IMG/VR virus record: IMGVR_UViG_2609460125_000009
DNA from: a virus
Taxonomy: Duplodnaviria > Heunggongvirae > Uroviricota > Caudoviricetes
DNA: 64,000 nt
Strand: one strand, 5' to 3'
The first letter of the stretch is position 1; the number at the start of each line of letters is the position of its first letter. The notes below the pieces were generated by a model, which made no database searches, was not told where the DNA came from, and saw nothing but the letters and a program-made list of their open reading frames with translations. This document shows positions 1 to 45,879 of this stretch, piece after piece. The position numbers and the translations under genes were made by a program.

Positions 1-972
1 AGCCTGCGTTACTACTACACTGCGAAACTCTCTTCGCGCATTGATGATATCGATCTCAACCTGGAGGATTTCGTTCAGCGTGTGAATGCCGATATCGTGA
101 ACAAAGTGGTTAACCTGGCGTCCCGTAACGCTGGCTTTATCAATAAGCGTTTTGACGGTGTGCTGGCAAGCGAGCTGGCTGACCCGCAGTTGTACAAAAC
201 CTTCACTGATGCCGCTGAAGTGATTGGTGAAGCGTGGGAAAGCCGCGAATTTGGTAAAGCTATCCGTGAAATCATGGCACTGGCTGACCTGGCTAACCGC
301 TATGTCGACGAGCAGGCTCCTTGGGTAGTCGCAAAACAGGAAGGTCGCGATGCTGACCTGCAGGCGATTTGCTCAATGGGCATCAACCTGTTCCGCGTGC
401 TGATGACTTACCTGAAACCGGTACTGCCGAAACTGACAGAACGTGCGGAAGCATTCCTGAATACGGAACTGACCTGGGATGGCATCCAGCAACCGCTGCT
501 GGGCCATAAAGTGAATCCGTTCAAAGCACTGTATAACCGTATCGACATGAAACAGGTGGAAGCATTGGTGGAAGCGTCTAAAGAAGAAGTGAAAGCTACT
601 ACCGCGCCAGTTACTGGCCCGCTGGCAGACGACCCGATTCAGGAAACCATCACCTTTGACGACTTTGCCAAAGTTGACCTGCGCGTGGCACTGATCGAAA
701 ACGCAGAGTTTGTTGAAGGTTCTGACAAACTGCTGCGCCTGACGCTGGATCTCGGCGGTGAAAAACGCAATGTCTTCTCAGGCATCCGTTCTGCTTATCC
801 AGACCCACAGGCACTGATTGGTCGTCACACCATTATGGTGGCTAACCTGGCTCCGCGTAAGATGCGCTTCGGCATCTCCGAAGGTATGGTGATGGCTGCT
901 GGCCCCGGCGGGAAAGATATCTTCCTGTTAAGCCCGGATGCTGGTGCTAAACCTGGCCACCAGGTTAAGTAA
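1..972 (+). CDS. metG: methionyl-tRNA synthetase, C-terminal part (5' end outside window)
   Basis: Frame open from base 1; translation matches the MetRS C-terminal anticodon-binding and tRNA-binding region as recalled (…[47 protein letters not shown]…); stop at 970-972. Confidence 0.9.
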
Positions 973-991
973 TTAAGCAACCTCTGTTCGC

Positions 992-1018
992 AATGCCCGG
1001 CAACACGCTGGGCATTTT
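992..1018 (+). terminator. rho-independent terminator after metG
   Basis: ATGCCC…GGGCAT stem followed by TTTT. Confidence 0.6.
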
Positions 1019-1055
1019 CATATAGACACAATCCCTCCTGATTTACACAAGCCCT

Positions 1056-1070
1056 AAAACAATTTGTTTT
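1056..1070. promoter_or_regulatory. palindromic operator-like site AAAACAA-T-TTGTTTT (motif family 1)
   Basis: Perfect inverted repeat; first occurrence marks the left edge of element-specific sequence. Confidence 0.5.
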
Positions 1071-1105
1071 CTATCTTTTGTTGATTGAGATAATAAGCCA
1101 CATAA

Positions 1106-1121
1106 GAAAACAAATTGTTTC
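1106..1121. promoter_or_regulatory. motif family 1 site GAAAACAAATTGTTTC
   Basis: Palindrome 13 bp upstream of the ATG at 1134, overlapping the RBS region. Confidence 0.55.
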
Positions 1122-1133
1122 GGAGTGGTTGAA

Positions 1134-1433
1134 ATGTTGAACATTACCCAAGCCTACCAGGTGGCATTGATCAGTTCATCTCATACATCAGAGGAAGATG
1201 CTCGCCGATTCATGATCGCAAGCAATGAGCTGGATTGGGTTTCACAAATTGATGGCGGTTGTATTGTCCACGCCGGGTTACAGGATGATGTCTGGAAAGA
1301 CGACTTGCGTCGATATGGTATATCCGAAGGCGCGATTGCTAACATTCAGAAAGTACTTGATGTAGGCTTTGACTCTGTACATTTTGATTGTGGTGCGCCG
1401 ATCGTTGAAGGGCTTGAGTGCTGGTGTTGGTAG
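1134..1433 (+). CDS. hypothetical early protein
   Basis: ORF with GGAG RBS; ATG 1134 preferred over the GTG at 1125; family 1 operator upstream. Confidence 0.45.
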   Translation: MLNITQAYQVALISSSHTSEEDARRFMIASNELDWVSQIDGGCIVHAGLQDDVWKDDLRRYGISEGAIANIQKVLDVGFDSVHFDCGAPIVEGLECWCW

Positions 1434-1564
1434 AGTGTATAAGCGGATCAATGAGTTACGGAAACAGTTAATAATGAGGAGCTTGTAATAAGCTGTATAC
1501 CCTAGAAAAGCTAGACTAGGGAATAAAATGACGTGAAACTGGGCGAGACAGTAAATAATTCCGA

Positions 1565-2794
1565 ATGATAATTGAACAAATAACCCCTTGCTCGGAGCTT
1601 GGAATGACTGATACCGCTTTTTCAAAATCGTTACAAAAAGAAGTCGATCCTGAGCAGTACTTGGCGCTAAAGAATTTAGATGACAGCTCGGTTCATGCTA
1701 TTGCCCGTGACGATATCATCTGCCCCATTTGCAAAGTTGGAGGTGGTTCGTTCGTTAGAGCCACTAGGAATGGTGGCTATCACAAGAAGGCGCATTTCAG
1801 ATTTACCGGTGAAGATGGTCAAGGCCATCATCCATCATGTGATTTCTATGGAGATAGACTAACATCTGAGGTGAAGCAGCACCTTGTCTCATTCACAAAA
1901 GATCGAACAAAGTATTCGCAGGTAATACGAAAGCTGGTCTGTGCCGGCATACAGGAAGGGATATTTACTCAAGAAAAAATGTGGCAGATGAGGGAATGGT
2001 TCTTCAATAAGCGAAAGGATTCCACATTTGAAATATGGTTAGAAAGCGAGCATTTAGACTGGCTTTATTATATTAGTGGGTTACGTGATGCATATCTAGC
2101 ATGGACAACTCCTGATATTCTACCTTTCGCGCCCATTCAGGTTACTGTGCCTGGTTTTTCTTGGAAGCGTGCGATTGACAAAGAGGTGCTAAGAGTTCAC
2201 ATCAAGACTCTCCAGCAATTGCGTGAAATTTCAGTCTCACATAGAGACATTGCTGTAATCTTAGAACACATAAACAATAATCGTGACCGCACAATTCTCG
2301 ATCCATCGCATTTGGAGGACGAGATAAGTAAGACCTATAAGCTTACTAGTTTTGTGATGGGCAATTACATTGAGTTTCAGACAAAAACGGTTAGCGACAG
2401 AGCATACGGGGAAGCTAAGTTTCTGGCATTTGCAGCACTTTTGTTGTTCGTGTCAGATTGGGACCTCAACATTGCTATTGGTAAGTTTTCTAAGATTGCC
2501 AGAGTGAAGGAGGTTGATGACATGCTGGCTGGTAATTTCATTGGTCTTAATCCTTACTTCCGATACGACCTGGCTAATGCAGTGAAGAGATTGCAGGATA
2601 ACTGGCCGATTGAATACCAAGAGTTGGAGCATTGGAATGTTGAGAAATCCATGCGTGACGCATATGAAAAGTGGCGTGCGACAGAGCCTGAATTCGCTCC
2701 ACCCCTATTGCCAGACTTGTATATTGCCAAACATGAGAAAGAAGTCGCACAAGACGAGCAAGTCAGGCAGTGGATTAAGAACGGGGATGTTTGA
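1565..2794 (+). CDS. hypothetical protein with N-terminal zinc-ribbon-like Cys/His cluster
   Basis: 409-aa ORF; CPICK…HHPSCDFYG motif; start uncertain (ATG 1604 has a better RBS). Confidence 0.5.
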   Translation: MIIEQITPCSELGMTDTAFSKSLQKEVDPEQYLALKNLDDSSVHAIARDDIICPICKVGGGSFVRATRNGGYHKKAHFRFTGEDGQGHHPSCDFYGDRLTSEVKQHLVSFTKDRTKYSQVIRKLVCAGIQEGIFTQEKMWQMREWFFNKRKDSTFEIWLESEHLDWLYYISGLRDAYLAWTTPDILPFAPIQVTVPGFSWKRAIDKEVLRVHIKTLQQLREISVSHRDIAVILEHINNNRDRTILDPSHLEDEISKTYKLTSFVMGNYIEFQTKTVSDRAYGEAKFLAFAALLLFVSDWDLNIAIGKFSKIARVKEVDDMLAGNFIGLNPYFRYDLANAVKRLQDNWPIEYQELEHWNVEKSMRDAYEKWRATEPEFAPPLLPDLYIAKHEKEVAQDEQVRQWIKNGDV

Positions 2795-2849
2795 GTGTAA
2801 TTAGCTTAATCAATCAGTTGATAATGGCGGTCACAATTTGATTCTTTTC

Positions 2850-3720
2850 TATAAGAATCCGTTGATCGCCACTACTCTTCTTCCATACCTGCAATCACAC
2901 CTTTAAATATCAATAAGTTATAGTTGTTTATACAATCAAGAAAACAACTGAATAACAGATCAACGAAACATCAACGCTTTCACCCGATTTGGTCTAAAAA
3001 ATTGACGTATTCACACATCACTTCTTATACCCGTAATTCTACGCAGCAGACAGCGCCACAGCGTCCAATTTTCACCACAGACGACCCAACACACTACCAA
3101 CAAAAACACACGCTCAAAATCGCTCCCGTTGCGTTACACAACCATATAAACAACTTATTTTCAGGCATAACAAAACAACTAAATAACACACATGCCATTC
3201 CCCAAAACAACCAACCTCTTTATGGCAGGCTACCGAAAAGACCCACCTCTTCTCCCCAGGCTACCGGACAACCAACCTAACTTTCACAGGCAATCCGAAA
3301 ACATTCATACGCGCGATACCCACGACACGCCATTACCCAAACAGCGAAGAAACACCAGAATCACTGAAACCCCAACGAAGCCTGTAACCGCAAGGTTTCT
3401 CTCAATCCCAAAAGACACGAAACATAACAATCACGGGAAACGCCATTACCCAATACACGAATAACTACAAAAGCCTTTCACACACTCCAGACAAACAACT
3501 CAAACACAATAACGAAAGGAATCGCCCACCTGCCATTACTCCATACACGGAGAAGAACAATCACCAAAACGACGAGAACACCCCATAGAAGAACCACCGC
3601 AAAACGAACGAAACCACATACACCGACAGAGAGAACAACACACCCAATTCACAAACAGAAATAGTCGCCGCATAGAACGTTCTGGAAGGGGTGAGCATTA
3701 ACGCCTATAGAGAGGTTGAG
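2850..3720 (+). other. strongly A+C-skewed non-coding region with degenerate direct repeats
   Basis: G and T are scarce on the given strand; no ORF >=60 aa on the opposite strand; repeated GCCATTACCCAA and CAGGCTACCG units. Confidence 0.6.
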
Positions 3721-5289: not shown

Positions 5290-5685
5290 ATGACCGTTAA
5301 ACGCGAAAAACTGACAGTTGATGTTTACTATGCCTCTGAAACCGCCGAAGGTAAGAATGTGGCAAAAATCACCGTTGTTACGTACAACACCGAAACTGGT
5401 GCCGAAGTACAGGCCAGTACGATCGTGCGTAAAGGTGATGCCTCCGGCGGCGAGTACGCGACTCAATACCAGTCCATTCTCGATGCAACTGACCCGCTGC
5501 TGCTGAAAATCGAGAACTACTTCCGCCAGGTTGATGAAGAGGTGTTTGAAACCATGATGAATATGGTTAACACCGTATTCGCCTCCAGCCTGAACACCAG
5601 CACCACCTGGATTGGCCAGTACGGTCTGCGCATTACCTCTGGCATTCCTGCCGACACCTTAATCCCTGAAAGCGTATTCGCTTAA
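5290..5685 (+). CDS. hypothetical protein
   Basis: ORF with GGAGAG RBS. Confidence 0.45.
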   Translation: MTVKREKLTVDVYYASETAEGKNVAKITVVTYNTETGAEVQASTIVRKGDASGGEYATQYQSILDATDPLLLKIENYFRQVDEEVFETMMNMVNTVFASSLNTSTTWIGQYGLRITSGIPADTLIPESVFA

Positions 5686-6823: not shown

Positions 6824-6963
6824 AAATGACCATCCTGTTTCCCGCAGGCTAAAAACACCAACCTCTTACCTCCAGGCAACCGACAAACCCACCTGTTCCC
6901 GTCCGGCTACCGCAACTTTCCACTTTGACGCCTTATTCGTACAACGATAATTAACACCAACAA

Positions 6964-6977
6964 GAAAACAATTTGTT
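6964..6977. promoter_or_regulatory. motif family 1 site GAAAACAATTTGTT
   Basis: Preceded by the CGATAATTAACACCAACAA block. Confidence 0.5.
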
Positions 6978-6998
6978 ATTTACGATAAGGAATTAATC

Positions 6999-7481
6999 AT
7001 GAATTTTATCGCTACTGTAAACGCACCCGCACATGGCAATATCGCTGTAACGTTCTCTGACATTGAAAAACGAGTACTTGGTGCATGGCGCGACAATGAG
7101 ACGGTAGAACTGTCAGCACAAGAAAAATGCATTATTGCACGCGACATCATTGGCAATCGTCGTTACTCGCGGGTATTTGAGAAAGCATATGTGGTAAATT
7201 CTGGATTCGGAACGTTCGTCTTTCCGGTGCGCTCCGGGCGATTCTGCCAGTCCAAGCTGATTGAGTTCGCTACGCAGATTTCTGTCTGGATTAAAACTCA
7301 ATCGTCGTTCAAATTTTCCGACGATGAAGCAGTATCGCAGGGGATGCGGATCGCCAACAATGCGATTAAATGCAAAAACATTACGTATACCGCTGGCGTT
7401 GATACATGGAAACTGTTTTGCGCTAACTTTATGCTGAATGTATACGCAAGCAACCGCATCCACATCCTTGATGGCGTGTAA
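6999..7481 (+). CDS. hypothetical protein
   Basis: 160-aa ORF with AAGGA RBS. Confidence 0.5.
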   Translation: MNFIATVNAPAHGNIAVTFSDIEKRVLGAWRDNETVELSAQEKCIIARDIIGNRRYSRVFEKAYVVNSGFGTFVFPVRSGRFCQSKLIEFATQISVWIKTQSSFKFSDDEAVSQGMRIANNAIKCKNITYTAGVDTWKLFCANFMLNVYASNRIHILDGV

Positions 7482-7494
7482 CTGAGAAGAGGGC

Positions 7495-7620
7495 CAGAAA
7501 CGGCCCTTTCTCTACAGCCACCAGCTGCCGCAGGGAAATTTTCAGAAACGGCGAGGAACGTATTCATGAGCCGACGGGAAACGGCCAGGATTTTTTCGGG
7601 AAACGGCTGCATTCGCCTTT
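7495..7620. repeat. second iteron-like array (AGAAACGGCC / GGGAAACGGC units)
   Basis: Four or more direct repeats of the same core as the 3895-4015 array. Confidence 0.55.
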
Positions 7621-7725
7621 ATATAGAAAAAACATCGGGAAGCTGGTGGAATCCAACCAGCGGTTGTCGGACAGGTGAGCGGGGAAAATCATGATGACTT
7701 TCGTCGCCTGAGACATCCAGATTTC

Positions 7726-7780
7726 TTTCGTAGCGTAATCACATATGTGATTAAGTGGTGTGATTATGTGAAAAATCACG
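7726..7780. promoter_or_regulatory. cluster of perfect palindromes (TAATCACATATGTGATTA; ATTATGTG-N12-CACATAAT)
   Basis: Inverted repeats in a convergent intergenic region. Confidence 0.4.
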
Positions 7781-8071
7781 CGCACATAATACGAGAGCGG
7801 ATACGGAACAAAACAAAATGCCGATCCGCGCCGACAATTAAACGCGGATCACATAGCAAGAATAAAAGCCAATGATTAACCATACACCATAACGCAATAT
7901 AACGCGATTTAAGCGCGTTAATGCGCTAAGTAATGGGTATGTACTGGTAAGGATATAAAAGCGCGTCTATGGCGTTATTTTGGCGCTTATTTTTATGTTG
8001 TTGGTGTGAGTCAAAGACAATAAAAAACGCGCTAATGATGGCGCGTTATGGTGGGAGTATTGGAAACGAAA

Positions 8072-8093
8072 AAAGCGCCCATAGTGGGCGCTC
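8072..8093 (-). terminator. hairpin AGCGCCCA-TAG-TGGGCGCT downstream of the 8098 gene
   Basis: Perfect 8-bp stem; identical copy at 8568. Confidence 0.45.
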
Positions 8094-8097
8094 GATT

Positions 8098-8328
8098 TTA
8101 TTTATGTAAACTGATTTCAAATCCCATTTCTACAAACGCTTTTAACATTAAAAATATATCAGCGTCATTCACGTCTGCTTTTTTTCGCTCCTGGTCGCTC
8201 AATAAGTCAATTTTGCGCGTCGTTTCATCTATAAGCTCGACTGCGCGCCCAGCGTAACCAGCGATCCCAGCGATGCGATTAACATAATATTCGTTATGGA
8301 CGTTAACGCCAGCGATAAGAACAAACAT
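8098..8328 (-). CDS. hypothetical protein (76 aa)
   Basis: ORF in an AT-rich operon. Confidence 0.4.
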   Translation of the reverse strand: MFVLIAGVNVHNEYYVNRIAGIAGYAGRAVELIDETTRKIDLLSDQERKKADVNDADIFLMLKAFVEMGFEISLHK

Positions 8329-8348
8329 GATTAAGCTCCTTAAAAAAA

Positions 8349-8552
8349 TTAAATAGAATTTTGAAGTTTTCCGATTAATGCGCTTAAACGTAAGTATTCA
8401 CGTTTGCGCTTGCAATCTCGCTTGCTGTTAAGCAAATCAGAAAACGTAAAATTTAATTGGTCGCGTTGCGCGATTAAATCATCGATTAATTCCAGTTTAT
8501 AAGCGCGATACTTTGCGCGATATTCCGCGCGGATCTTGTCATAGCTGACCAT
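8349..8552 (-). CDS. hypothetical basic protein (67 aa)
   Basis: Start moved to the internal ATG with an AAAGGAG RBS; the longer track ORF would run through the 8568 hairpin. Confidence 0.4.
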   Translation of the reverse strand: MVSYDKIRAEYRAKYRAYKLELIDDLIAQRDQLNFTFSDLLNSKRDCKRKREYLRLSALIGKLQNSI

Positions 8553-8567
8553 TTTCAAAGCTCCTTT

Positions 8568-8589
8568 AAAGCGCCCATAGTGGGCGCTT
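8568..8589 (-). terminator. hairpin identical to the 8072 copy
   Basis: AAAGCGCCCATAGTGGGCGCTT between the 8601 gene stop and the next RBS. Confidence 0.45.
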
Positions 8590-8600
8590 GATTCCATTAA

Positions 8601-9251
8601 TTACGCTTTGAAAGCATCAGCTAAATAATTGTAGAAATCATTTTTAATGAAGCGATATTGCTGAGTACCAGCTTTCGCACTCCCAGCTCCTTTGACTTTT
8701 TCAACAAGTCCAAGACGTTCGCAAAGATTGATCAACTGGTTGGCTTGAGTATAGCCAGCGTCCAATTTAATTTCACACGCTTTTTTAGCTTCATTCATTA
8801 AATCGAAAACAGCGCCATTGGTGAACGTGTCGATCTCGTCGTTAATCATATCGATTAAAGCGAATACACGAGATCCTGACATATCAGCGATGGAATAAAC
8901 GCATTTACCAGATTTAATTGATTTAACCAGATAAACCAGTTTTTCCAGAGAATAACTATTAGTCATTGCATCACGGAAAAATACTTCTGGCGCTTGTTTG
9001 CTTGCTTTAATCGCATAGTAGAAAACAGAGCATAATTTTTCGTCTTCTACTGCGTTTACGACGTTGTTGATGAAGTAAGCAAGTTTAGTGGTCGCAGCTT
9101 GCATATTTGCTTTGTCTGCTTTAGTGTGCGTACCATTTTTATAATGTTCGTTATATGTTTGAGTTGCCAGATCTGCTTTTTCGCGCAGCTCGTCGGATAC
9201 AATAGATGCAGCTTCAATGATGGACTTTTTAGAAATGATAATGTTAGCCAT
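8601..9251 (-). CDS. hypothetical protein (216 aa), no recognisable motif
   Basis: First gene of an AT-rich operon; long AT-rich promoter region upstream (9252-9500). Confidence 0.5.
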   Translation of the reverse strand: MANIIISKKSIIEAASIVSDELREKADLATQTYNEHYKNGTHTKADKANMQAATTKLAYFINNVVNAVEDEKLCSVFYYAIKASKQAPEVFFRDAMTNSYSLEKLVYLVKSIKSGKCVYSIADMSGSRVFALIDMINDEIDTFTNGAVFDLMNEAKKACEIKLDAGYTQANQLINLCERLGLVEKVKGAGSAKAGTQQYRFIKNDFYNYLADAFKA

Positions 9252-9502
9252 GATAATTTTTCCTTATGTAAATTTAAAATTTATTGTCGTTAGCGTCTTC
9301 GCTTTCGACGAGTTCAATTATCGATACGCGAAAAAAGATTGCAAGTGTTTTTTTTAAATTTTTTGCAGGGATGAAAGTCCTAGAAATAAAAGCGAGATCG
9401 TCGAAGGTGTTCCCTAAATAAATAATCAATTCGGGCTTTTAACCTTATATATATTTAGGTTATTTGATTTGTAGATATAAAGAAGTGATGTGAAAAATAA
9501 TA

Positions 9503-9524
9503 ACCGGACTTAGCCGGTTATTAA
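9503..9524 (-). terminator. hairpin AATAACCGG…CCGGTTATT
   Basis: Stem-loop downstream of the 9535 gene. Confidence 0.45.
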
Positions 9525-9534
9525 CCTTATAGAT

Positions 9535-9843
9535 TTATTGAACAGACTCTACAGCCTTACGATTGGTGTCAAATAGCGCATCAACGAACTGTGCCGATGA
9601 CTCGCTAGATTCGCAATCCAACATTGCCCGTTCTTCATTTGCCACTTTCTTACACAGTTCCACATTCTCACCTATCGCTTTTCCTGCTTTTACGGCTGCC
9701 GAAAATTGATACATGCAAACTGATACATTCTGAGACGTTGAGCACACGTCATTCATCAGCGACTGAATGACAGGCTTATAGTCCATTGCATTTGCCGCAA
9801 CTGAGCAAAGTAAAAATAATGGTGGTAACAATATCGATTTCAT
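9535..9843 (-). CDS. secreted cysteine-rich small protein
   Basis: N-terminal hydrophobic signal-like segment (MKSILLPPLFLLCSVAANA); six Cys residues. Confidence 0.5.
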   Translation of the reverse strand: MKSILLPPLFLLCSVAANAMDYKPVIQSLMNDVCSTSQNVSVCMYQFSAAVKAGKAIGENVELCKKVANEERAMLDCESSESSAQFVDALFDTNRKAVESVQ

Positions 9844-9846
9844 AAC

Positions 9847-10371
9847 TCAAAAAGGCAAAATTCGTTCAACCCAATCGAACAAAACAACTATTTTTCTACC
9901 GTTCTCGACACGTAGTGTAACCTGACAAGCATCTGCGCCTGCTGACACCCCCTCAATTTCACGGCCATCCGCCATGTACACCCTTATAGATTTGTTTGCT
10001 TTGTAGGCTTGGTTGCAAATTGCAAAAAAATCGCGGCGTGATGGCCGATTATCGACATAATCAGGGTGAACTGTTAATCGACCTTTGAAATCGTGAGCGA
10101 TACTGTCAACCACACCTGATTCAATTGTACTAATGCGTTCAAGTGGGAGCCTTATACGATTTTCTTTGTCAAAAGGGGCTGGGCAAAGGTCAACTTTGTT
10201 GCGAGATGGCATGAGGCCATAAACGTACATGCAAAACGCCTGACCATCTTCGAGAGTGACCCTTACAGGAATTTGTTCTCTGCGCCAGAACATCAGTAGT
10301 TTTTCAACGTTAGTGTAATCTCGCGGCAAGAGTTCAGCTTGGATACCGTAGGTAATATCTTTGGTTGTCAT
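9847..10371 (-). CDS. hypothetical protein
   Basis: Start moved to the internal ATG (MTTKDITYG…) to avoid overlap with the upstream lipoprotein gene. Confidence 0.4.
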   Translation of the reverse strand: MTTKDITYGIQAELLPRDYTNVEKLLMFWRREQIPVRVTLEDGQAFCMYVYGLMPSRNKVDLCPAPFDKENRIRLPLERISTIESGVVDSIAHDFKGRLTVHPDYVDNRPSRRDFFAICNQAYKANKSIRVYMADGREIEGVSAGADACQVTLRVENGRKIVVLFDWVERILPF

Positions 10372-10375
10372 GTCA

Positions 10376-10798
10376 TCACAGAGTTGTTGGCAGAATGTCG
10401 ATGTTACCAGAATTGCTGGTGAACACCCTGAACGCTTTTGTGTCTCCATTCTTCAGAGTCGTTTCTCGCTCTTGACGAGCGGGGTTTAGAGCACATAAAC
10501 CTGCACCTTCAAGAGATGCACCCACAATTAATTCTCCGGCATTTAAATGGAAAGTCGCTTTTTCGCCTGTAGCCAGTTTTGCGACAGTTTCGCCATTGAT
10601 GAAAATGGAAGCATCACATCCAGCTCCTACAAAACCTGTGTCTCTCATTACCACCAACGTAGCTGGCGCTGCGCTTTGATACTTGAACACTTTGGCCTGC
10701 GGTGCTGGTTTGGCGTCATGGATTGATATTGGACGTGATTGGCACGCGGTAAGCATCAACACTGGTAACGTTAGTAGAGGGAGAAGCGAGTATTTCAT
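10376..10798 (-). CDS. putative lipoprotein
   Basis: Signal peptide with lipobox (…VLMLTAC); start at MKYSLL. Confidence 0.5.
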   Translation of the reverse strand: MKYSLLPLLTLPVLMLTACQSRPISIHDAKPAPQAKVFKYQSAAPATLVVMRDTGFVGAGCDASIFINGETVAKLATGEKATFHLNAGELIVGASLEGAGLCALNPARQERETTLKNGDTKAFRVFTSNSGNIDILPTTL

Positions 10799-10866
10799 GT
10801 TAGTTTTAGAACAGAAAGTGAACAGTATGGGAGACTTCATCTTTGTCTCCCTAATTGATAGCGTGA

Positions 10867-11145
10867 TTATTTTAATCTGCTTAATAGCGTTTCGAGATCT
10901 TCCTTTGTCATATTAGAGTTCTCATAGATACGCATGATTTTCTCACGAGTCTTAGCGGAAGCCCCGACAGAAGATATAACCTTGTCAAAGTCGGCCATTG
11001 TCAATTGTTCCAGAATGGTATTAATGACTTCAGCCTTAGACATTTTGATATTTTTTTCTTTTAGTTTCACTTGAAACTTTCCAAGTTTGTCATTGGCCTT
11101 ATCAGACAATGCTACCTGACAGTAAGTTGTTTTCTTTTCACTCAT
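10867..11145 (-). CDS. hypothetical small protein (92 aa)
   Basis: ORF immediately downstream of the helicase gene. Confidence 0.4.
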   Translation of the reverse strand: MSEKKTTYCQVALSDKANDKLGKFQVKLKEKNIKMSKAEVINTILEQLTMADFDKVISSVGASAKTREKIMRIYENSNMTKEDLETLLSRLK

Positions 11146-11147
11146 AA

Positions 11148-12707
11148 CTAATCTCGTTTCAGAACTCCAAAATCGAATGCTCCATCAATAGGCAATACAC
11201 CTTCTGCAAAGCCAGGTGTGGTGTCGATGATGTGTTTTCGCTCATAAGAGTGAGACAACAGGTATTTGTTGCTAATGTCAATGAAATCAGTGATAAAACA
11301 CACGTTTGCCTGATTTTTTTTGGCTCGTAAGCCACGACCGACACGTTGTCTCATTTCAACTTCTGCTTTCCCACCACCAGCAAGAATGACCGCACCAACG
11401 CTTGGCACATCAACACCAACATCCAGAATAGTCGAGCCTATTAAAACATCTATTTCACCAGACGCTAAACTGTTCAGCTTTGCTTGCCTTGTCGTCTGGT
11501 TAGATTCCCCATAGATGAAATCAACTCTAAGACCTGACTCCTTCATCATCTCCATCAGGATTTGCCCGTGGCGTTTAAGACGAACCAGAGTCATGCAGTT
11601 GAGTGAATGTTGCTTATAAAGCAATGCCTCGCGCACTATGGCCTCGTTACGTCCCAAATTATACACGATCCCCAACTGATAAGCCTTTTGGTAGGCGGTG
11701 CTCATACCAACTCTAAAATTGAGATGTTTGTTGGCAAGTTCGGCCTTGATTCTGGCCTCGTCTGGCTTGTAGGCAACTTTATGATAAAGGAAGTACGGCT
11801 TTGCCAGAATGCCTCGATCAATCAGGTACTTTTCTGTGACTTTAATTTCAATTCGCCCGGCCACCGCCATCAGGCGCATGTTGGCTTCCGTCGAATCCTT
11901 CATGAACGGCGTGGCTGTAAGCGCCAGACGATAGTCTGCGTTCACACATAATCTGGCGATGTCATAGAAATTTGAGCCTGAAGACTCATGCGCCTCTTCC
12001 AGAATAAGAAGAGAGACACTTGAAAGGAAGCGTTTCACCAACTCCCGACGTTTGAGGTGGTAGCTTTTCTTATCTGGTGTTGCATCGCGTGGTGGTTCTT
12101 CGAGGAAACTTGCAAGAGTTTGAACTGTAGCGACGTTGATATGTCGTGATACCTGGAACTCACCCGAGCCAATGACTCCAACCTTTTGGTCTTTTAACCA
12201 CGGTTCGCCATTTTTGGCGCGGTAGTCGATGGATCTCTGGAAGTTTTCGGCCATTTGAAACATCAGAACAGAGCGGGTTGTTAAAAATAATGTCATTCGA
12301 CCGATACGTGCAGCTGCTTTGCAGGCAACATTAGATTTCCCGCCACCAGTAGCGATCTGCGCAATCATCATTCCCTCTCGAACCAGTGTTTCCACAGTCT
12401 GATCCTGATACGCATAATCAGGATTGTATGGGAATGGGTTAACCGCCGGATTTGGTTTACCAAGCGCCGGGGCTTTGTCTTTGCGGATATGAACACATTT
12501 GATGCCCGCCTTGTTCAAGTTCGCCGCTACAGGCTTGGCAAAGCCAGCAGGGAACGAGTTTTTACTCCAGTTGAACATCGTGCTTGTGCCCTTCCAGTCG
12601 CCAGTCTCGACTTCGTAGCTCAACATTTGCTGCACCAGTTGCTTTACCTTGTCATCTGCGCCAGAAATAAGCGCATTTACTGCGTTAGATACAATCCGAA
12701 CAGTCAT
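11148..12707 (-). CDS. superfamily-2 DEAD/DEAH-box helicase
   Basis: Motif I ATGGGKS, motif II LILEEAHE, motif III TATP, motif VI QRVGRGLR. Confidence 0.75.
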   Translation of the reverse strand: MTVRIVSNAVNALISGADDKVKQLVQQMLSYEVETGDWKGTSTMFNWSKNSFPAGFAKPVAANLNKAGIKCVHIRKDKAPALGKPNPAVNPFPYNPDYAYQDQTVETLVREGMMIAQIATGGGKSNVACKAAARIGRMTLFLTTRSVLMFQMAENFQRSIDYRAKNGEPWLKDQKVGVIGSGEFQVSRHINVATVQTLASFLEEPPRDATPDKKSYHLKRRELVKRFLSSVSLLILEEAHESSGSNFYDIARLCVNADYRLALTATPFMKDSTEANMRLMAVAGRIEIKVTEKYLIDRGILAKPYFLYHKVAYKPDEARIKAELANKHLNFRVGMSTAYQKAYQLGIVYNLGRNEAIVREALLYKQHSLNCMTLVRLKRHGQILMEMMKESGLRVDFIYGESNQTTRQAKLNSLASGEIDVLIGSTILDVGVDVPSVGAVILAGGGKAEVEMRQRVGRGLRAKKNQANVCFITDFIDISNKYLLSHSYERKHIIDTTPGFAEGVLPIDGAFDFGVLKRD

Positions 12708-16158: not shown

Positions 16159-16791
16159 ATGACGGTCGAAAAAGACGAGGTAAAAACTCGCCTGACACCA
16201 GCGGAGTGGGCCGAAGCTGAAGCCAAATGGACGTCAGGCGAATATACACTCTCAAAGCTGGAGGAAGAGTACGGCATTCGTCGTGAAACACTCTCCAGAC
16301 ATTTCAAAAAGCGAGGATTAGAGAAAGGCGCGGACTCTGTTGGGAAGATGGTTCGTGAGTCTCTTAAATCTGACGCAGAGCTTCGCGCTAAAGCCCGTGC
16401 GGAAAAGATAGAAGAACGTCGTACACGTTATGACGGCTGGGCGTATGCGTTGGGGCAGATGGTGATGGTCGAAGTCACTACGGCCAAACGTGAGGGTAAG
16501 CCTTTAGGGGCGATTGAGGATTCTCTCAAGAGCTTACAGAGAGCCAGTAATACCCTTGCAAAATGCTTTGAAGTTTCGTCCAAAGCATTGGGCATGGATC
16601 ATGCGGAAAATGACGAGGAAGAAATTCCGAACCTGGTATTTGGTGAGCTTACGCCTTCCCAGGTGGCGAAATTACGTCAGGAAGACGACGAGCCTGAAAT
16701 CATCGATGACGAATTGCTTGAGACGTTGGAAGAAGAAGCTCTAAGCGAATTTGATGCGACAGATGATGGAAGTGAAGGGGAGGACGAATAA
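16159..16791 (+). CDS. terminase small subunit (putative)
   Basis: Position immediately upstream of terminase large subunit; acidic C-terminus. Confidence 0.55.
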   Translation: MTVEKDEVKTRLTPAEWAEAEAKWTSGEYTLSKLEEEYGIRRETLSRHFKKRGLEKGADSVGKMVRESLKSDAELRAKARAEKIEERRTRYDGWAYALGQMVMVEVTTAKREGKPLGAIEDSLKSLQRASNTLAKCFEVSSKALGMDHAENDEEEIPNLVFGELTPSQVAKLRQEDDEPEIIDDELLETLEEEALSEFDATDDGSEGEDE

Positions 16792-18047
16792 TGGCAATCC
16801 CGTCCTCGCTCAGTCTTGTGCAACTGCATTCTGGACAGATGAAAGTCTTCCAGTCTCCGCATCGATTTAAAGTTGTTTGTGCTGGTCGACGCTGGGGAAA
16901 ATCCCGGTTGTCGATCTCCACTATTATTCGTGCGGCGGCAAAGGAAAAAAAGCAAAGGGTCTGGTATGTCGCTCCTACTTACCAGATGGCTCGCCAGATT
17001 TTGTGGGACGATCTACAGGAAGTTCTGCCTCGTAAGTGGGTTAGGAAAAAGAACGACACCACGATGACAATCGTGTTGAAGAACGGTTCGGAGATCGCCC
17101 TCAAAGGTGCTGATAAGCCTGACACTCTGCGCGGCGTAGCGTTGCATTTTGTAGTGCTTGATGAATTTCAGGATATGAAGGCTGACACTTGGTACAAGGT
17201 GTTACGACCTACTCTTTCATCGACACGCGGCGGTGCACTGATCATTGGTACGCCAAAAGGCTTCTCGGAATTTCACAAACTGTGGACTATAGGCCAGAAC
17301 GTAGAGCTGCAAAGAAAGGGACAGTGGAAGAGCTGGCAGTTTGTAACTGCCGATTCTCCGTTTGTACCTACGGCGGAAATTGAAGCTGCTAAGAACGATA
17401 TGGACCCCAAATCGTTCGCTCAGGAGTACCTGGCCAGCTTTGAGAACATGTCCGGGCGCGTTTACTACCCGTTCGATCGTAACGTGCATGTAAAACCGCT
17501 TCAGTTCAACCCTCGGTTACCTATATGGGTAGGGCAGGACTTCAACATTGACCCGATGTCTTCCGTAATTTTGCAACCTCAGCCAAATGGTGAGCTATGG
17601 GCAATTGATGAATTGGTGCTCTTTTCCTCTAACACGGCAGAGGTTTGTGATGAGCTTGAGAGACGCTTCTGGCGCTGGAAATCACAGATAACGATATTTC
17701 CAGATCCGGCAGGTGCTTATCGCCAACATGCTCGCGGGGAGTCTGACGTCGACATATTCAAAGAGAAGGGATTCTTACGTGTCGATTATTCGAAAAAGCA
17801 CCCGCCAATTGCGGATCGTGTTAATGCTGTTAACCGAATGCTGATGACCGCATCTGGAGATATCCGGCTGTATATCGATCCGAAGTGCAAGCATTTGATT
17901 GATTCACTGGAAAAAGTCATCTACAAGCCTGGAACACGAGATATGGATAAGACAGGTGGCATTGAGCATAGTGCAGACGCATTGGGCTATCCAGTACATC
18001 GTAGGTATCCAGTCAAAAACCGTGTTATTCTTGGTGGTTCTCGATAG
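16791..18047 (+). CDS. terminase large subunit
   Basis: Walker A-like VCAGRRWGKS, Walker B VVLDEF; gene order. Confidence 0.8.
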   Translation: MAIPSSLSLVQLHSGQMKVFQSPHRFKVVCAGRRWGKSRLSISTIIRAAAKEKKQRVWYVAPTYQMARQILWDDLQEVLPRKWVRKKNDTTMTIVLKNGSEIALKGADKPDTLRGVALHFVVLDEFQDMKADTWYKVLRPTLSSTRGGALIIGTPKGFSEFHKLWTIGQNVELQRKGQWKSWQFVTADSPFVPTAEIEAAKNDMDPKSFAQEYLASFENMSGRVYYPFDRNVHVKPLQFNPRLPIWVGQDFNIDPMSSVILQPQPNGELWAIDELVLFSSNTAEVCDELERRFWRWKSQITIFPDPAGAYRQHARGESDVDIFKEKGFLRVDYSKKHPPIADRVNAVNRMLMTASGDIRLYIDPKCKHLIDSLEKVIYKPGTRDMDKTGGIEHSADALGYPVHRRYPVKNRVILGGSR

Positions 18048-18073
18048 GTAAGTAATTATCTAAGGTTATTCAA

Positions 18074-19648
18074 ATGGAATTGAACGACAAACAAATTAAG
18101 GATCTGGTGGCGCGACGCCACCCGGAATACGAAAAGAAAAAAGAACATTGGGACTTCCTCGCCAGCACTTACGCTGGCGGGCGTGGTTGGTTTACAGACA
18201 ATATCTTTCGTTACTTTAAAGAGGGAGATCAGGAGTTTAAGGAGCGAGTTGAACGTGCTTATCGCTTCAACCACACTCGTGAGGTGGTAAACCTCATCAA
18301 CAAATATCTCTTTAAAGAAGACATTCATAGAAATATCGAAGAGGCACCAGAGCAGATCCGCAATTTCTGGAAACGTGCGACTCGCCAGAATGCCTCTATT
18401 GACTCATTTATGGCCGCTATTGATTTGCAGTCGTCTATTTACGGTCGCATATGGGTTGTTGTCGATAGCACGATGAGTGGTGATGTTGAGTCAGTAGCTG
18501 ACGAGAAAAAGAAAGATGCTCGCGCCTACGCCTACTGGATTTCACCTCAGCAAATGCTGGATGTGGCATGGGACGACGACGGGAATATGTTGTGGGCGTT
18601 AATTGTGGAAGTCGCTCGTGATGACGCAGATCCTTTTACTTCTACAGGTCAGGAATACCAACGTTATCGTCTGTGGACACAAAACGAGTGGTATCTGTTC
18701 CGTGAGGAAGTGAAGAAGGGCGCTGGTGGAGCAGGTCGCCGTCAGGCAAAAGTTATTTTAGAGGATAGCGGTGAGCATAATCTCGGCGTAGTTCCTGTGT
18801 TTCCTGTTGATTGTATTGGAGAAAGTGAATCACCGTATTTCAGCCCATCGTTGATCGATGATATCGCTTATCTTGATCGTGCGGTTGCAAACTATCTGTC
18901 AAACCTTGATGCCATTATTCAGGATCAGACATTTAGCCAGTTGGCTATACCGGTACAGTCGCTTTTACCTGGTGATGAAAACCACACTAAAGTGCTTGAA
19001 ATGGGCACAAAGCGAGTCTTCACCTACGATTCTGAAGGCGGAAACCAGCCGTTTTATCTGTCACCAGACCCGAAACAAGCTCAGATGATCATCACTACGA
19101 TTAAGACGGTGATTAACGAAATCTACCATTCAGTTGGTGTAGCTGGTGAGCGAACGAAGCAGGACAACGCACAGGGAATCGATAATTCATCTGGTGCCGC
19201 AAAAATGTATGACTTCCAGCGTGTAAATAGCTTGCTTGTCACAAAAGCAGAGCGTCTGGAAAGGGCTGAACGCCAAATCATGCTACTGGTTGCGAAATGG
19301 ATGGGGGTAGATCTGGACGAAGACCACTCTTTAATTGCGTATCCAGAAAGTTTCGATATTCGTGGCCTTACTGATGAATTTTCTGTTGCCGAGAAACTGT
19401 CATTACTTCAGGCACCGGACTCTGTACGTCGTCACCAGATGGAAATGCTTATTGAGAAGATTTTCCCGAACATTACTGAGGCGATGAAAAAGGAATTTGA
19501 TAAAGATCTCTTGAATTTTCCTCCAAAAAATGATCTAAATACCCTTGAAAATAAGTCAGTACTTACTTATGATCGTGGTGCAGCCCAAGAAAGCGGGCAA
19601 GATCAACCCCGAGGGAATGGGGACTCATCTACTCAAGAGAACGAGTGA
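18074..19648 (+). CDS. portal protein (putative)
   Basis: 524 aa directly after terminase large subunit. Confidence 0.65.
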   Translation: MELNDKQIKDLVARRHPEYEKKKEHWDFLASTYAGGRGWFTDNIFRYFKEGDQEFKERVERAYRFNHTREVVNLINKYLFKEDIHRNIEEAPEQIRNFWKRATRQNASIDSFMAAIDLQSSIYGRIWVVVDSTMSGDVESVADEKKKDARAYAYWISPQQMLDVAWDDDGNMLWALIVEVARDDADPFTSTGQEYQRYRLWTQNEWYLFREEVKKGAGGAGRRQAKVILEDSGEHNLGVVPVFPVDCIGESESPYFSPSLIDDIAYLDRAVANYLSNLDAIIQDQTFSQLAIPVQSLLPGDENHTKVLEMGTKRVFTYDSEGGNQPFYLSPDPKQAQMIITTIKTVINEIYHSVGVAGERTKQDNAQGIDNSSGAAKMYDFQRVNSLLVTKAERLERAERQIMLLVAKWMGVDLDEDHSLIAYPESFDIRGLTDEFSVAEKLSLLQAPDSVRRHQMEMLIEKIFPNITEAMKKEFDKDLLNFPPKNDLNTLENKSVLTYDRGAAQESGQDQPRGNGDSSTQENE

Positions 19649-22931: not shown

Positions 22932-23764
22932 TGGCGCAGATCGACTCGTATCGTAGCGGTGAAGCTGTTTCTCTTTCATTTGCCTTCAACGTGCTGGATA
23001 TCGAATCTGCCACCTACACAGTAAAGGACAGCACCGGGGCTATTCTCGTTGATGGCGAGCCGCTAGAAATTACCAACGGTCAAATGTCGATTCCGGTTGT
23101 CGTGTCGGCTGAATATAACCAGCTCTCTGAGAAAGAGCGAGATCTGCGGTACGTCATTGTGAAGGCTGTTGCATCGGGTCTGACGCATGAAGAGCGGCAA
23201 ATGTATGTTCTGCTGAATAGTTTTGAACTGTCGATACCAGAACAGTCGTTTGCAACTGTCGCTGATGCTCAAATGCAGGCGATCGATATGCTGAATGGGG
23301 ACACTTTGCTGTCGGATGGTGAAGGCTTAATGCGCAAGCGTCTCATTGAGGCTACCAGACGAATTAAAACTTTACCGTTCTCAATCCGCAAAATTCTACG
23401 TATCGACTTTGACCGATACGATCGCCCTCAAAATATGCTGAATGTGTATGATATTCCGTGGGGAGCAGATGGAGCGTACCGGCATGATTTAGTCGATTGG
23501 GAAAAGATGACGCAGGAGAAGTTTGAAGAGTTCCCTGACTACTTCAAAGAAGCGTTGATGCTTGCCGTTGTCAACGAAGCGTGTGAGATCGCAAATGGCA
23601 ATGATGTAGCCGCAGCACGAGAGGATGGCATTTTGTCAGAGTCCATCGGTGAAACAACCAACATGTACCGTACCGGTAAAGCTGCAAACGTGCATGTGGC
23701 TCGTAGTACCTGGCGCTTGCTGGTCAGTTACATCAACAACCGTATGATTGTTCGCCGTGCGTAA
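22931..23764 (+). CDS. hypothetical head-tail connector region protein
   Basis: ORF; start overlaps the upstream stop. Confidence 0.45.
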   Translation: MAQIDSYRSGEAVSLSFAFNVLDIESATYTVKDSTGAILVDGEPLEITNGQMSIPVVVSAEYNQLSEKERDLRYVIVKAVASGLTHEERQMYVLLNSFELSIPEQSFATVADAQMQAIDMLNGDTLLSDGEGLMRKRLIEATRRIKTLPFSIRKILRIDFDRYDRPQNMLNVYDIPWGADGAYRHDLVDWEKMTQEKFEEFPDYFKEALMLAVVNEACEIANGNDVAAAREDGILSESIGETTNMYRTGKAANVHVARSTWRLLVSYINNRMIVRRA

Positions 23765-23843
23765 CGCCAGTCGCATTATTTACTTTTGGTCTAAAGGGTT
23801 TTTGGCCAGTAATGAGAGCGACCGACAACAACAGGGAGAGAGC

Positions 23844-24188
23844 ATGAATATTTCATGGCAAACAGAAATTGCGCTCTACCGCTTTGGCGCAAAGAACGTT
23901 TACGGTGAGGCGCAATTACAATTCGTCAGGAAGACGAATGTCGGCGTGGTTAAGTTCGAACAGAGTAATGAGAAATCGTCAGTTCGTGCTGATAGCTCTG
24001 GTAGTCGTGGTAAGGCGAGTCTGGAGCTGTTTGATGCTGTGTTAGTTGTCCCTTTAGAAGCGGCTGTACAACTTGATGATGTACTGATCCTTGAAGGTCA
24101 AAAATTAAAGGTGTCCAGTGTTCATCGCCGCTGGGGGCTACGAGGAAGACCTGGGCATCTTGAAGTAGGGGCGAATATATGGGTCTGA
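23844..24188 (+). CDS. hypothetical head-tail joining protein
   Basis: ATG with GGGAGAGAG RBS. Confidence 0.45.
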   Translation: MNISWQTEIALYRFGAKNVYGEAQLQFVRKTNVGVVKFEQSNEKSSVRADSSGSRGKASLELFDAVLVVPLEAAVQLDDVLILEGQKLKVSSVHRRWGLRGRPGHLEVGANIWV

Positions 24189-24652
24189 AATACGATGCGC
24201 ATCAGTTCAAACGTGCGGGGAATAGACTCAACAACAGCCAGAAAGCATTTAAGCGATATCTTATTCGGGACATGGAAAAGCTGGCGCGTTTGGTTGAGCG
24301 CCTCAGCCGTGCAATGGCCCCGCTGGAAACCGGATCTCTGGAGACAGCCATCTTTGCCAGGGTGATTAAAGAAGGTTATTCAGGGCTGCGCATTGAGCTT
24401 TCTGTGTCTGGAGCAAAACCACGTCAGGGGCATCCGGGCGTAGAAGTCGGTGACTATGCTAAGTACATGGAGCTGGGTAAATACCGACTCGGTTATCTTT
24501 CTCGAATGAAGAACGTGACAAACCCACCAATTGCCGGTGTTAAACCTCGTGTTGGGCCGCACTTTCTGGAAAGAGCGGTGGAAATTAGCGAGAAGCAGTT
24601 CTCAGAAGCGATTCTTGAGGCTGCCAGAAAAGCCGGTTTTACGAGAGGTTAA
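24179..24652 (+). CDS. hypothetical tail-completion region protein
   Basis: ORF in the expected position. Confidence 0.45.
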   Translation: MGLKYDAHQFKRAGNRLNNSQKAFKRYLIRDMEKLARLVERLSRAMAPLETGSLETAIFARVIKEGYSGLRIELSVSGAKPRQGHPGVEVGDYAKYMELGKYRLGYLSRMKNVTNPPIAGVKPRVGPHFLERAVEISEKQFSEAILEAARKAGFTRG

Positions 24653-45357: not shown

Positions 45358-45879
45358 TTATTCTTCGAACAATTTTTCGATAGATTTTGTAGGATAGAAC
45401 AAAGAACGCTCGTTGTTACCAACCAGCTGGATAAAGCCTAAACTTTTATAAAACGCCTTGGCTTTGTCATTTAACGCCTCAACGAAAAGTCCATGAATGC
45501 CTACAGCAAGAGATGCATTGTACACAACGCGCATTGCATGTGTTACAAGCATTGAGCCAAATCCTTGACCTTGAAGGGACTTGTCCAAAGCCAGCCTACC
45601 CAAAGTAACACTTGGAACATTCCGATAAGGAACCTTCTTTTGTTTGCTTCTTGAAGGTAAGGACTCCTTTTCAAAACAACTACCTGACAAAGTGTAATAT
45701 CCTAACACTTTTGGCCTTTCTTCTTGAGTGCAAAGCACATAAGCACGAAGAATTTTTCCCTCATGCTGCCTTTTTAAGTGGTTGGCTAAAAAGGCGTTTA
45801 GTGACTCTTCGCCGCAATCAAAACCGTTTAGATCATAATCTTTCTCTCCAGAGAAAATCTCTATCGTTGTATTGCTCAC
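45358..45879 (-). CDS. GNAT-family acetyltransferase toxin (TacT/KacT/AtaT-like)
   Basis: GNAT motif QGQGFGSMLV; directly downstream of an RHH antitoxin-like gene. Confidence 0.7.
   Translation of the reverse strand: MSNTTIEIFSGEKDYDLNGFDCGEESLNAFLANHLKRQHEGKILRAYVLCTQEERPKVLGYYTLSGSCFEKESLPSRSKQKKVPYRNVPSVTLGRLALDKSLQGQGFGSMLVTHAMRVVYNASLAVGIHGLFVEALNDKAKAFYKSLGFIQLVGNNERSLFYPTKSIEKLFEE

Follow-up and report, generated by a model that had tools for sequence, protein, structure and literature searches.

A metG gene carried by a phage-plasmid has already been published, namely that of pWPMR2 of Shigella sonnei, for which PMC12452169 cites Tam et al. 2024 (medRxiv 10.1101/2024.10.27.24316207); according to the citations in the same paper, the extra MetRS copy promotes antimicrobial survival/persistence in epidemic Shigella. 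pWPMR2 is assigned to clade K of the SSU5 supergroup and is also found in E. coli of CC131, CC23, and CC73 (bioRxiv 10.1101/2025.09.12.675607, which likewise cites Tam et al. 2024). In this study, a 64 kb stretch of viral DNA (the window) was analyzed, which begins within metG and continues into phage-like genes. The preliminary description of this DNA regarded positions 972–1134 as a boundary between a chromosomal metG and a phage-like element that was either integrated there or brought next to metG by an assembly join. Our results point very strongly to a different interpretation, i.e., that 972–1134 is an internal gene-cassette boundary of an extrachromosomal, circular phage-plasmid of the SSU5 family, belonging to the E. 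coli/Shigella lineage that includes pWPMR2-like elements. We are equally confident that the element is neither integrated nor misassembled, and that it carries an extra metG of its own.

The window resembles the pWPMR2-like SSU5-supergroup phage-plasmids of S. sonnei and E. coli, which are ~108–113 kb in size and carry an auxiliary metG, this comparison being made via relatives of pWPMR2. The S. sonnei plasmid NZ_CP045933.1 (108,107 bp) shows the same gene order (S24 peptidase, apbC, metG, DUF5983) and the same junction. Its metG allele and that of the window are 69 of 972 nt and 3 aa apart; two substitutions specific to the S. sonnei allele within residues 355–677 (A410T and D565E) are missing from the window metG, and the third one (G134C) falls upstream of the window. 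The Escherichia phages Cyrano (OV696614), PhiR41_1 (PV340561), and CMS-2020a (CP053388 and CP054387), known from phage genome records of 108–109 kb, have apbC (annotated as "MinD" or "Mrp") and metG in the same position, followed by the same junction, and share 94–95% identity with the window over positions 1–1400. The metG genes of Cyrano and PhiR41_1 differ from the window allele at 61–62 of 972 nt. The host of PhiR41_1 is listed as K-12 MG1655, yet its metG is ~115 nt away from the E. coli chromosomal alleles.

The Salmonella prototypes of the family, SSU5 and pHCM2, share the backbone (~82% nucleotide identity over the region of the helicase, ParB, ABC ATPase, terminase, and portal genes). 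SSU5 also has the double-palindrome cassette with the predicted promoter (window 1052–1120, aligned with SSU5 88314–88382 at 87%), but it lacks apbC-metG; its cassette is preceded, at a distance of 4 nt, by the end of another small gene, SSU5_103, and the accessory genes on both sides differ. The E. coli chromosomal apbC(mrp)-metG locus comprises these two genes as well, likewise divergently arranged. In contrast to the cargo of the phage-plasmids, however, it is flanked by yehE and DUF4132 genes rather than phage genes and has a different terminator; nucleotide divergence between the two loci reaches 5–7% for metG and 16–18% for apbC, and only ~57% of the intergenic region can be aligned. A lambda-type prophage with its integrase and att sites is similar in that a phage genome stands beside a housekeeping gene and the terminator of that gene, but here neither an adjacent integrase nor att direct repeats are present, and the housekeeping gene is the element's own.

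The 3′ part of metG occupies positions 1–972 of the plus strand (972 nt, MetRS residues 355–677), an open reading frame that runs to the TAA stop codon at 970–972 and in which Pfam recognized the C-terminal end of tRNA-synt_1g, Anticodon_3, and tRNA_bind. This sequence is 99.9% identical to plasmid alleles (only 2 nt separate it from those of pCH4804 and pGMI17) and only 92–93% identical to each chromosomal copy. It differs by 63–64 nt from the chromosomal alleles of E. coli and Shigella, and by 63–93 nt across Escherichia chromosomal alleles. All 5,423 chromosomal metG matches were 92–93% identical and ended at base 973. Judged by its allele, the window metG is a cargo gene of the phage-plasmid and not the chromosomal copy of the host, and the label "chromosomal" has to be withdrawn, given 99.6–99.9% identity to plasmid copies against 92–93% to chromosomal ones. 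The boundary itself does exist, marking where a cargo module of chromosomal ancestry ends, but it is not a junction between chromosome and element. As the 5,423 chromosomal places were found in a set of 5,426 genomes, loss of chromosomal metG in carriers was considered, but mislabelled records (e.g., a 4.9-Mb "plasmid") are the simplest explanation.

The entire window is colinear (96–99%) with the circular 113,030-bp plasmid NZ_JBRBPR010000004.1, the colinearity reference being the circular plasmid pCH4804. The colinear relatives are circular E. coli plasmids of 105–113 kb of the SSU5 phage-plasmid family, and their records are circular. Positions 1–3000 are 99.6–99.9% identical to plasmids of ~110 kb. 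For the variable segments, in which pCH4804 differs, the best database matches (99.4% and 99.9%) both came from NZ_CP027358.1, and no database record 100% identical to these segments was found. Among 5,426 complete E. coli genomes, a terminase and portal probe matched 245 places in 237 genomes and a backbone probe (8000–11200) matched 309 places; every one of them (245/245 and 309/309) was on a plasmid, and neither probe had a chromosomal copy. The family is thus common, being present in ~4% of complete E. coli genomes (237/5,426). In PLSDB, the module was found in 211 plasmids, 206 of which are non-mobilizable. Most of the relatives have 100–115 kb and some others 120–139 kb. From these relatives, metG and the element appear to lie on one replicon, and this replicon appears to be the phage-plasmid; for the source isolate itself, the replicon is read from its relatives, with the sequence 5′ of window base 1 lying outside the view.

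The gene content agrees with the hallmarks of a phage-plasmid listed in the preliminary description. Pfam recognized within the window ParA/MipZ, TacA with a GNAT toxin, a DnaB-like helicase (DnaB_C), and an ATP-dependent ligase, and in the colinear plasmid ParB, primase, and dnaE are annotated, together with the structural and packaging genes of a phage (terminase, portal, major capsid, tape measure, and tail fibre). Only the iterons were not recovered, since no convincing direct-repeat array was found within 47.1–49.5 kb or by TRF. The ParA/MipZ-type partition ATPase (46475–47143, plus strand; Pfam), preceded by a palindrome of the family described below at 46426, would be among the plasmid-maintenance functions that spare the element the need to integrate. 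It was also correctly noted that the surroundings of the boundary lack an integrase, a tRNA, and an att repeat: the four tRNAs of the window all lie at 56295–56992, a full-length relative shows no flanking repeats, and the sole open reading frame with a Phage_integrase domain, a tyrosine recombinase (58017–59120, plus strand; Pfam), is ~57 kb away, adjoining a helix-turn-helix (HTH) reading frame (59115–59501, minus strand; Pfam). The recombinase is annotated in the circular plasmid pCH4804 and was found in all relatives in the plasmid state, from which we infer a role in multimer resolution (a resolvase) rather than in integration. Genes for partition, replication, and a toxin-antitoxin pair, all encoded by the element itself, would maintain it as a plasmid, and it would spread as a phage; therefore, no integrase/att pair would be expected beside metG.

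The cargo module comprises ~3.4 kb and ends by position 1051; it contains apbC and metG, whose divergent transcription matches that on enterobacterial chromosomes, and a terminator-like hairpin of its own. Its 79-nt 3′ untranslated tail (973–1051, plus strand) is, according to the alignment, conserved in all metG-bearing phage-plasmids and absent from SSU5, and it is not homologous to the region downstream of E. coli chromosomal metG. In the search for a donor, ApbC was used as the query to collect apbC-metG loci of 80 Enterobacteriaceae species. Among these species there was no near-identical donor module (apbC at most 84% and metG at most 94.7% nucleotide identity), and the tail had no match in their metG loci. 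In a full-length relative, the module has neither direct nor inverted repeats on its two sides, and its flanks bear no transposition scars, i.e., neither a target-site duplication nor terminal inverted repeats. An IS1 remnant beside apbC in pGMI17-003_2 was judged secondary, since most relatives are free of it. The plasmid pET729 unnamed2, which has no metG and in which homology to the window resumes at 1057, was considered as an ancestral empty site and rejected: the upstream gene is truncated, which makes it a deletion derivative.

Within the tail, a terminator-like hairpin is located at 992–1018 of the plus strand, with a 10-bp stem (992–1001/1007–1016), the loop AACAC (1002–1006), and a T run at 1015–1018; counted from 1015, the sequence reads TTTTCATAT. 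The 88-nt stretch with the hairpin folds at −20.1 kcal/mol (z = −2.6), as well as which only 4 of 200 shuffles fold. The pair 999–1009 is G-U in the window and G-C in the alleles of Cyrano, pSson, and PhiR41, a one-sided change that keeps the pairing. The hairpin is conserved across the compared alleles, and the E. coli chromosomal terminator is unrelated to it by alignment. The T run is only 4 nt long and lies partly within the stem; a simple terminator scan made no call here because only two T are left after the full stem. From the sequence, we infer a terminator function for the hairpin at 992–1016. The Rfam search returned just two sub-threshold chance matches (mir-190 and STnc310).

The conserved backbone starts with a putative promoter/operator cassette at 1052–1121 (plus strand), present also in SSU5. 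It contains two copies of a 15-bp palindrome, O1 (AAAACAATTTGTTTT, 1056–1070, a perfect 7-1-7 palindrome) and O2 (AAAACAAATTGTTTC, 1107–1121). The metG stop codon, the hairpin, and the palindromes are all placed as in the preliminary description. In a full-length relative, O1 and O2 form a 16-nt perfect inverted pair. The palindrome family counts eight sites in the window against 0.04 expected, a number that no shuffle reached, and all eight precede a plus-strand open reading frame, with <55 nt between site and start codon; a −10-like hexamer stands ahead of five of them (1107, 4827, 6965, 46426, and 49356). By direct reading of the sequence, a candidate extended −10-like element (TGaGATAAT) is found at 1086–1094 of the plus strand, O1 overlapping the −35 position of this predicted promoter and O2 standing in an operator-like position between the −10-like element and the Shine-Dalgarno motif GGAG (1122–1125). 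The consensus promoter and terminator scan called nothing in 973–1134, where it found no canonical −35/−10 pair, and therefore the regulatory reading rests on position and conservation. The proposed arrangement is an extended −10-like promoter flanked by two copies of the palindrome AAAACAAnTTGTTTT, and the AAAACAAnTTGTTTT palindromes are probably operators for a DNA-binding protein encoded by the element. The predicted promoter would drive the DUF5983-family gene (1134–1433, plus strand, 99 aa; PF19419, E = 4.5e-10), which starts with ATG at 1134, is annotated in the relatives, and is the first backbone gene after the cargo.

How, then, could the element still be chromosomal? It might have integrated directly downstream of chromosomal metG, either site-specifically or by homologous recombination between the plasmid and the chromosomal metG. 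The two copies are 92–95% identical, enough in principle for a Campbell-type crossover, exchange between them does happen, and the sequence 5′ of base 1 is outside the window. However, all 972 nt belong to the plasmid allele (2 nt from pCH4804 against 63–93 nt from Escherichia chromosomal alleles), and the terminator-like hairpin downstream of metG is of the plasmid type. Moreover, none of the 245 and 309 backbone places in the 5,426 complete genomes was chromosomal, the full-length relative has no att-like repeats, and the recombinase, 57 kb away, is equally present in free plasmids. Integration is therefore considered very unlikely. Even less credit, close to none, can be given to an assembly artefact in which a contig ending in chromosomal metG was linked to one of plasmid or phage origin: short-read assemblers classically make false joins at repeated genes, a second metG being an example, but the metG part is not a chromosomal allele and a false join would not yield a conserved 79-nt tail. 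It should be stressed that 214 complete circular E. coli plasmids from unrelated studies span metG, the junction, and DUF5983, and that the junction recurs base for base in four phage records (Cyrano, PhiR41_1, and two of CMS-2020a) and, as the exact motif, in 16 IMG/VR viral contigs, four of them 100–112 kb long.

A further alternative, unlikely although somewhat less so, is that the window derives from a larger cointegrate between an SSU5-type phage-plasmid and a second plasmid; this would leave the metG boundary as internal cargo. The 240,150-bp plasmid NZ_CP182204.1 is among the top matches to positions 1–3000 (99.9%), and other relatives reach 120–139 kb; most relatives, on the other hand, have 100–115 kb, and the 64 kb contain, apart from the usual variable segments, only sequence that belongs to the family.

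With metG regarded as cargo of a circular phage-plasmid, the cargo alleles themselves were compared. Plasmid metG alleles are up to 117 nt apart, yet they differ by only 0–9 aa (dN/dS 0.003–0.026), and ApbC shows 0 nonsynonymous versus 13–31 synonymous differences. No amino-acid difference is fixed between the plasmid-borne and Escherichia chromosomal MetRS proteins (677 aa). By these ratios, the cargo metG is under strong purifying selection, which speaks for a retained function. The two cargo genes have discordant ages: dS of apbC to E. coli is 1.2–1.4, at least matching that between E. coli and Citrobacter (1.16), and dS of metG is 0.25, a distance of the within-Escherichia range. Along 389 nt, one plasmid metG allele is 100% identical to the chromosomal metG of E. 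coli, the flanks of this tract being diverged by 6–7%, and nine plasmid metG alleles require at least 30 recombination events, with 44% of site pairs incompatible. Such host-identical patches in a highly mosaic cargo metG indicate gene conversion with the host copy. A broader reading, to which we assign an even chance of being right, is that the phage-plasmid metG recombines recurrently with the host chromosomal metG and with other phage-plasmid alleles, and that the phage-plasmids serve as an infectious shuttle and reservoir of alleles of an essential translation gene across Escherichia and Shigella. Under this reading, apbC would still bear the signature of the original non-Escherichia donor and metG would be largely overwritten, because dS is 1.2–1.4 for apbC versus 0.25 for metG. 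What is new in this work, i.e., purifying selection on the cargo metG, its wild-type protein sequence, mosaicism including stretches identical to the host gene, and the discordance in age between apbC and metG, constitutes modest additions to the published description of phage-plasmid-borne metG.

The locus thus presents no unusual integration site, integrase-less prophage, or misassembly, and it exemplifies that finding a housekeeping gene where a window begins or ends does not prove a chromosomal context. The comparative results could guide mechanistic work on the antimicrobial-survival phenotype of metG. If the shuttle reading is true, it would account for the metG copies that the literature describes as "highly variable", and any phenotype would come from dosage or expression and not from an altered enzyme.

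The first 972 nt of the window (plus strand) encode the last 323 residues of methionyl-tRNA synthetase (MetRS), in which Pfam recognized the end of tRNA-synt_1g, Anticodon_3 and tRNA_bind, and the gene ends with TAA at 970-972. It is followed on the same strand by a 10-bp hairpin found by folding (stem 992-1001/1007-1016, loop AACAC) that runs into TTTT at 1015-1018, and thus both the metG end and the downstream hairpin reported in the preliminary description were confirmed. The 88-nt stretch with the hairpin folds at -20.1 kcal/mol (z = -2.6); a simple terminator scan gave no terminator call at 992-1016. The pair 999-1009 is G-U in the window versus G-C in other alleles, with pairing preserved. 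The 79 nt at 973-1051, hairpin included, are kept in all metG-bearing elements, show no relationship to the terminator of chromosomal metG in E. coli (AAGGCGCTG...CAGCGCCTTTTCTTT) and have no counterpart at metG in any of 80 Enterobacteriaceae species.

The preliminary description regarded this metG as chromosomal, and the region 972-1134 as the edge of an integrated element or, alternatively, as an assembly join. Nucleotides 1-3000 are, however, 99.6-99.9% identical over their full length to ~110-kb E. coli plasmids, whereas all chromosomal metG matches (5,423/5,423) are only 92-93% identical and stop at base 973, so the gene is not the chromosomal allele. The same holds for the backbone: among 5,426 complete E. 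coli genomes, the terminase and portal genes (16791-19648) were found in 237 (245 places) and segment 8000-11200 at 309 places, every one of these places on a plasmid and none on a chromosome. The junction itself, i.e., metG, its tail, the palindromes and the DUF5983 gene, is spanned by 214 complete plasmids and by four phage genome records with an annotated "methionyl-tRNA synthetase", while a 43-nt motif of the hairpin region occurs exactly in 16 IMG/VR viral contigs (among them ones of 100,473, 108,107, 108,630 and 111,518 bp). For this family, chromosomal integration and misassembly are therefore both excluded, the former by the all-plasmid backbone matches and the latter by the recurrence of the junction.

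Two observations that had made the integration state unclear did stand, namely the lack of a tRNA gene near the boundary (the only four lie at 56.3-57.0 kb) and the remoteness of the sole tyrosine recombinase of the window (58017-59120, beside an HTH gene; Pfam). No integrase is needed, because the element encodes functions for partition, replication and addiction (Pfam and annotation of a relative) and all of its relatives are plasmids. The recombinase is conserved in the free-plasmid relatives. Cre of phage P1 serves multimer resolution, and by analogy this would be the most economical role for the recombinase.

The entire 64 kb are colinear (96-99%), a few variable segments excepted, with the circular 113,030-bp E. 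coli plasmid pCH4804 (NZ_JBRBPR010000004.1). Its annotation comprises the complete set of an SSU5-type phage-plasmid (portal, terminase, capsid, tail, ParB, helicase, DnaB-like helicase, primase, ligase, dnaE, MipZ/ParA, TacA/GNAT, four tRNAs and a tyrosine recombinase adjoining an HTH gene). Among phage records, Escherichia phages CMS-2020a, PhiR41_1 and Cyrano match the window at 96-98%, whereas Klebsiella SSU5-like phages and Salmonella phage SSU5 itself do so at only ~80% and ~82%, respectively. In PLSDB, the module of apbC and metG was present in 211 plasmids (Escherichia 194, Shigella 6), 206 of which are typed as non-mobilizable. The metG of PhiR41_1 differs by ~115 nt from E. coli chromosomal alleles despite its listed host, K-12 MG1655, which argues that the gene travels with the phage genome. 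The locus is thus an unremarkable boundary inside a phage-plasmid whose family is common and, like its cargo gene, already known. Phage-plasmid-borne metG has already been described (Tam et al., as cited in PMC12452169), and a 2025 survey (bioRxiv 10.1101/2025.09.12.675607) assigns pWPMR2, a metG-bearing phage-plasmid of S. sonnei, to clade K within the SSU5 supergroup and also reports it from E. coli CC131, CC23 and CC73. The S. sonnei plasmid allele differs from that of the window in 69/972 nt and 3 aa.

Several further observations concern the relatives and the remaining parts of the element. NZ_CP182204.1 (240,150 bp, ~2 times the usual size), among the best matches to 1-3000, may combine the phage-plasmid and a second plasmid in one cointegrate. 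Further apbC-metG pairs (~83% identity) occur on large "plasmids" of Salmonella (500 kb) and Klebsiella pneumoniae (257 kb), and Pseudomonas phage Y5 has a metG-like gene (66% identity); possible explanations are that mobile elements acquired metG independently, or that records of chromosomes were mislabelled. The element combines an aminoacyl-tRNA synthetase gene with a tRNA cluster (56295-56992; Asn-GTT, Tyr-GTA, Thr-TGT, Ser-TGA). It also encodes a TacA-family antitoxin and GNAT acetyltransferase toxin pair (45358-46195, minus strand). GNAT toxins of this family acetylate aminoacyl-tRNAs, and a functional link between the pair and the extra MetRS is possible. A hot spot of cassette turnover lies in the early region, where window 8345-10904 differs in sequence from pCH4804 9932-11140, the latter containing an ISVsa5 (IS4-like) insertion and diverged small genes. 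At 40603-40909 and ~42.7-44.2 kb, the window contains a tail-fibre/cor region and, within a 1385-aa tail-fibre ORF, a 120-nt tandem repeat (~2.2-2.5 copies). This tail-fibre/cor region, in which relatives have an annotated Cor exclusion lipoprotein, is matched by thousands of prophages in chromosomes and is the sole part of the window with chromosomal matches.

In full-length relatives, metG (2,034 nt) and apbC (1,101 nt) are divergent neighbours, the arrangement also seen on enterobacterial chromosomes. Homology to the E. coli chromosome is limited to the two ORFs and the intergenic region, from 4 nt from the apbC stop to 1 nt past the metG stop. SSU5, which lacks the module, is alignable from ~1047-1052 across both palindromes (87%). 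In the 139-kb E. coli plasmid NZ_CP100929.1 (4524-5080), apbC-metG is gone and a truncated upstream gene directly joins window position 1057; this plasmid is evidently a deletion derivative with its right breakpoint at the first palindrome. Together, these two comparisons place the cargo/backbone boundary at ~1047-1056. Neither target-site duplications nor inverted repeats were found to bracket the module.

The perfect 7-1-7 palindrome AAAACAATTTGTTTT, noted previously at 1056-1070, was verified, and 1107-1121 holds another copy of it. If one mismatch is permitted, the 15-bp palindrome AAAACAAnTTGTTTT has eight sites in the window (1056, 1107, 4827, 5730, 6965, 16105, 46426 and 49356) versus 0.04 expected, all <55 nt upstream of a plus-strand ORF start codon. 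Five of them (1107, 4827, 6965, 46426 and 49356) follow a -10-like hexamer (e.g., TGaGATAAT at 1086-1094 and TGgTATTAT before 4827) at a distance of a few to ~12 nt and precede the start codon by 8-35 nt; the ORFs at 46475 and 49389 encode ParA/MipZ and DnaB-like helicase domains. Within 1052-1134, one palindrome overlaps the -35 position and the other is situated between the -10 element and GGAG (1122-1125)/ATG (1134) of the DUF5983 gene, a layout from which we infer an operator-controlled promoter; a consensus scan made no promoter call there. The eight sites look like a regulon of putative operator-controlled promoters. An additional copy of the promoter cassette is present upstream in relatives (e.g., 5430-5490 of plasmid pGMI17, NZ_CP031136.1), and therefore the accessory region appears to be made of cassettes, each with its own putative operator-type promoter.

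Both cargo genes are held by selection, as indicated by low metG dN/dS (0.003-0.026, as low as in chromosomal orthologue comparisons) and by ApbC, which shows 13-31 synonymous and no nonsynonymous differences among plasmid alleles. All nine phage-plasmid metG alleles (9/9) are intact (677 codons) and are up to 117 nt (5.8%) but only 0-9 residues apart; the pCH4804 and E. albertii plasmid alleles, for example, are 80 nt apart with 0 aa changed. No fixed residue differences were found between plasmid and Escherichia chromosomal MetRS. The plasmid enzyme is thus essentially wild-type, and any phenotype of the extra MetRS should consequently arise via dosage or expression.

The ancestry of the two genes is discordant. 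The element apbC (23203-24303 in pCH4804, outside the window) is 80-85% identical to every one of the 80 Enterobacteriaceae species tested, Escherichia and Citrobacter being about equal, with dS to E. coli of 1.2-1.4, which corresponds to genus-level divergence and an evidently unsampled donor. The element metG is 92.5-94.7% identical to Escherichia species (dS 0.25), a within-genus distance. Among elements, diversity is higher in metG (3-6%) than in apbC (1-3%), and terminase/portal is also less diverse than metG (at least 99% identical in 187 records). Pairwise differences are unevenly spread over the thirds of metG (e.g., 5/23/52), and 44% of informative site pairs among the nine alleles fail the four-gamete test, requiring at least 30 recombination events; the plasmid alleles are thus evidently mosaics. 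The pGMI17 allele (6939-8972) contains a 389-nt tract (7677-8065) that is 100% identical to E. coli chromosomal metG, is embedded in otherwise 6-7% diverged sequence and matches 2,232 records at 99% identity or more, whereas no identical run exceeded 239 nt in 2,000 simulations; the 3' 972 nt of this allele are 6-7% diverged from chromosomal copies. This tract, together with the mosaic alleles, indicates that gene conversion has taken place between the phage-plasmid metG and that of the host. Such recombinational exchange of an essential gene between phage-plasmid and chromosome is the only mildly novel aspect of this locus.
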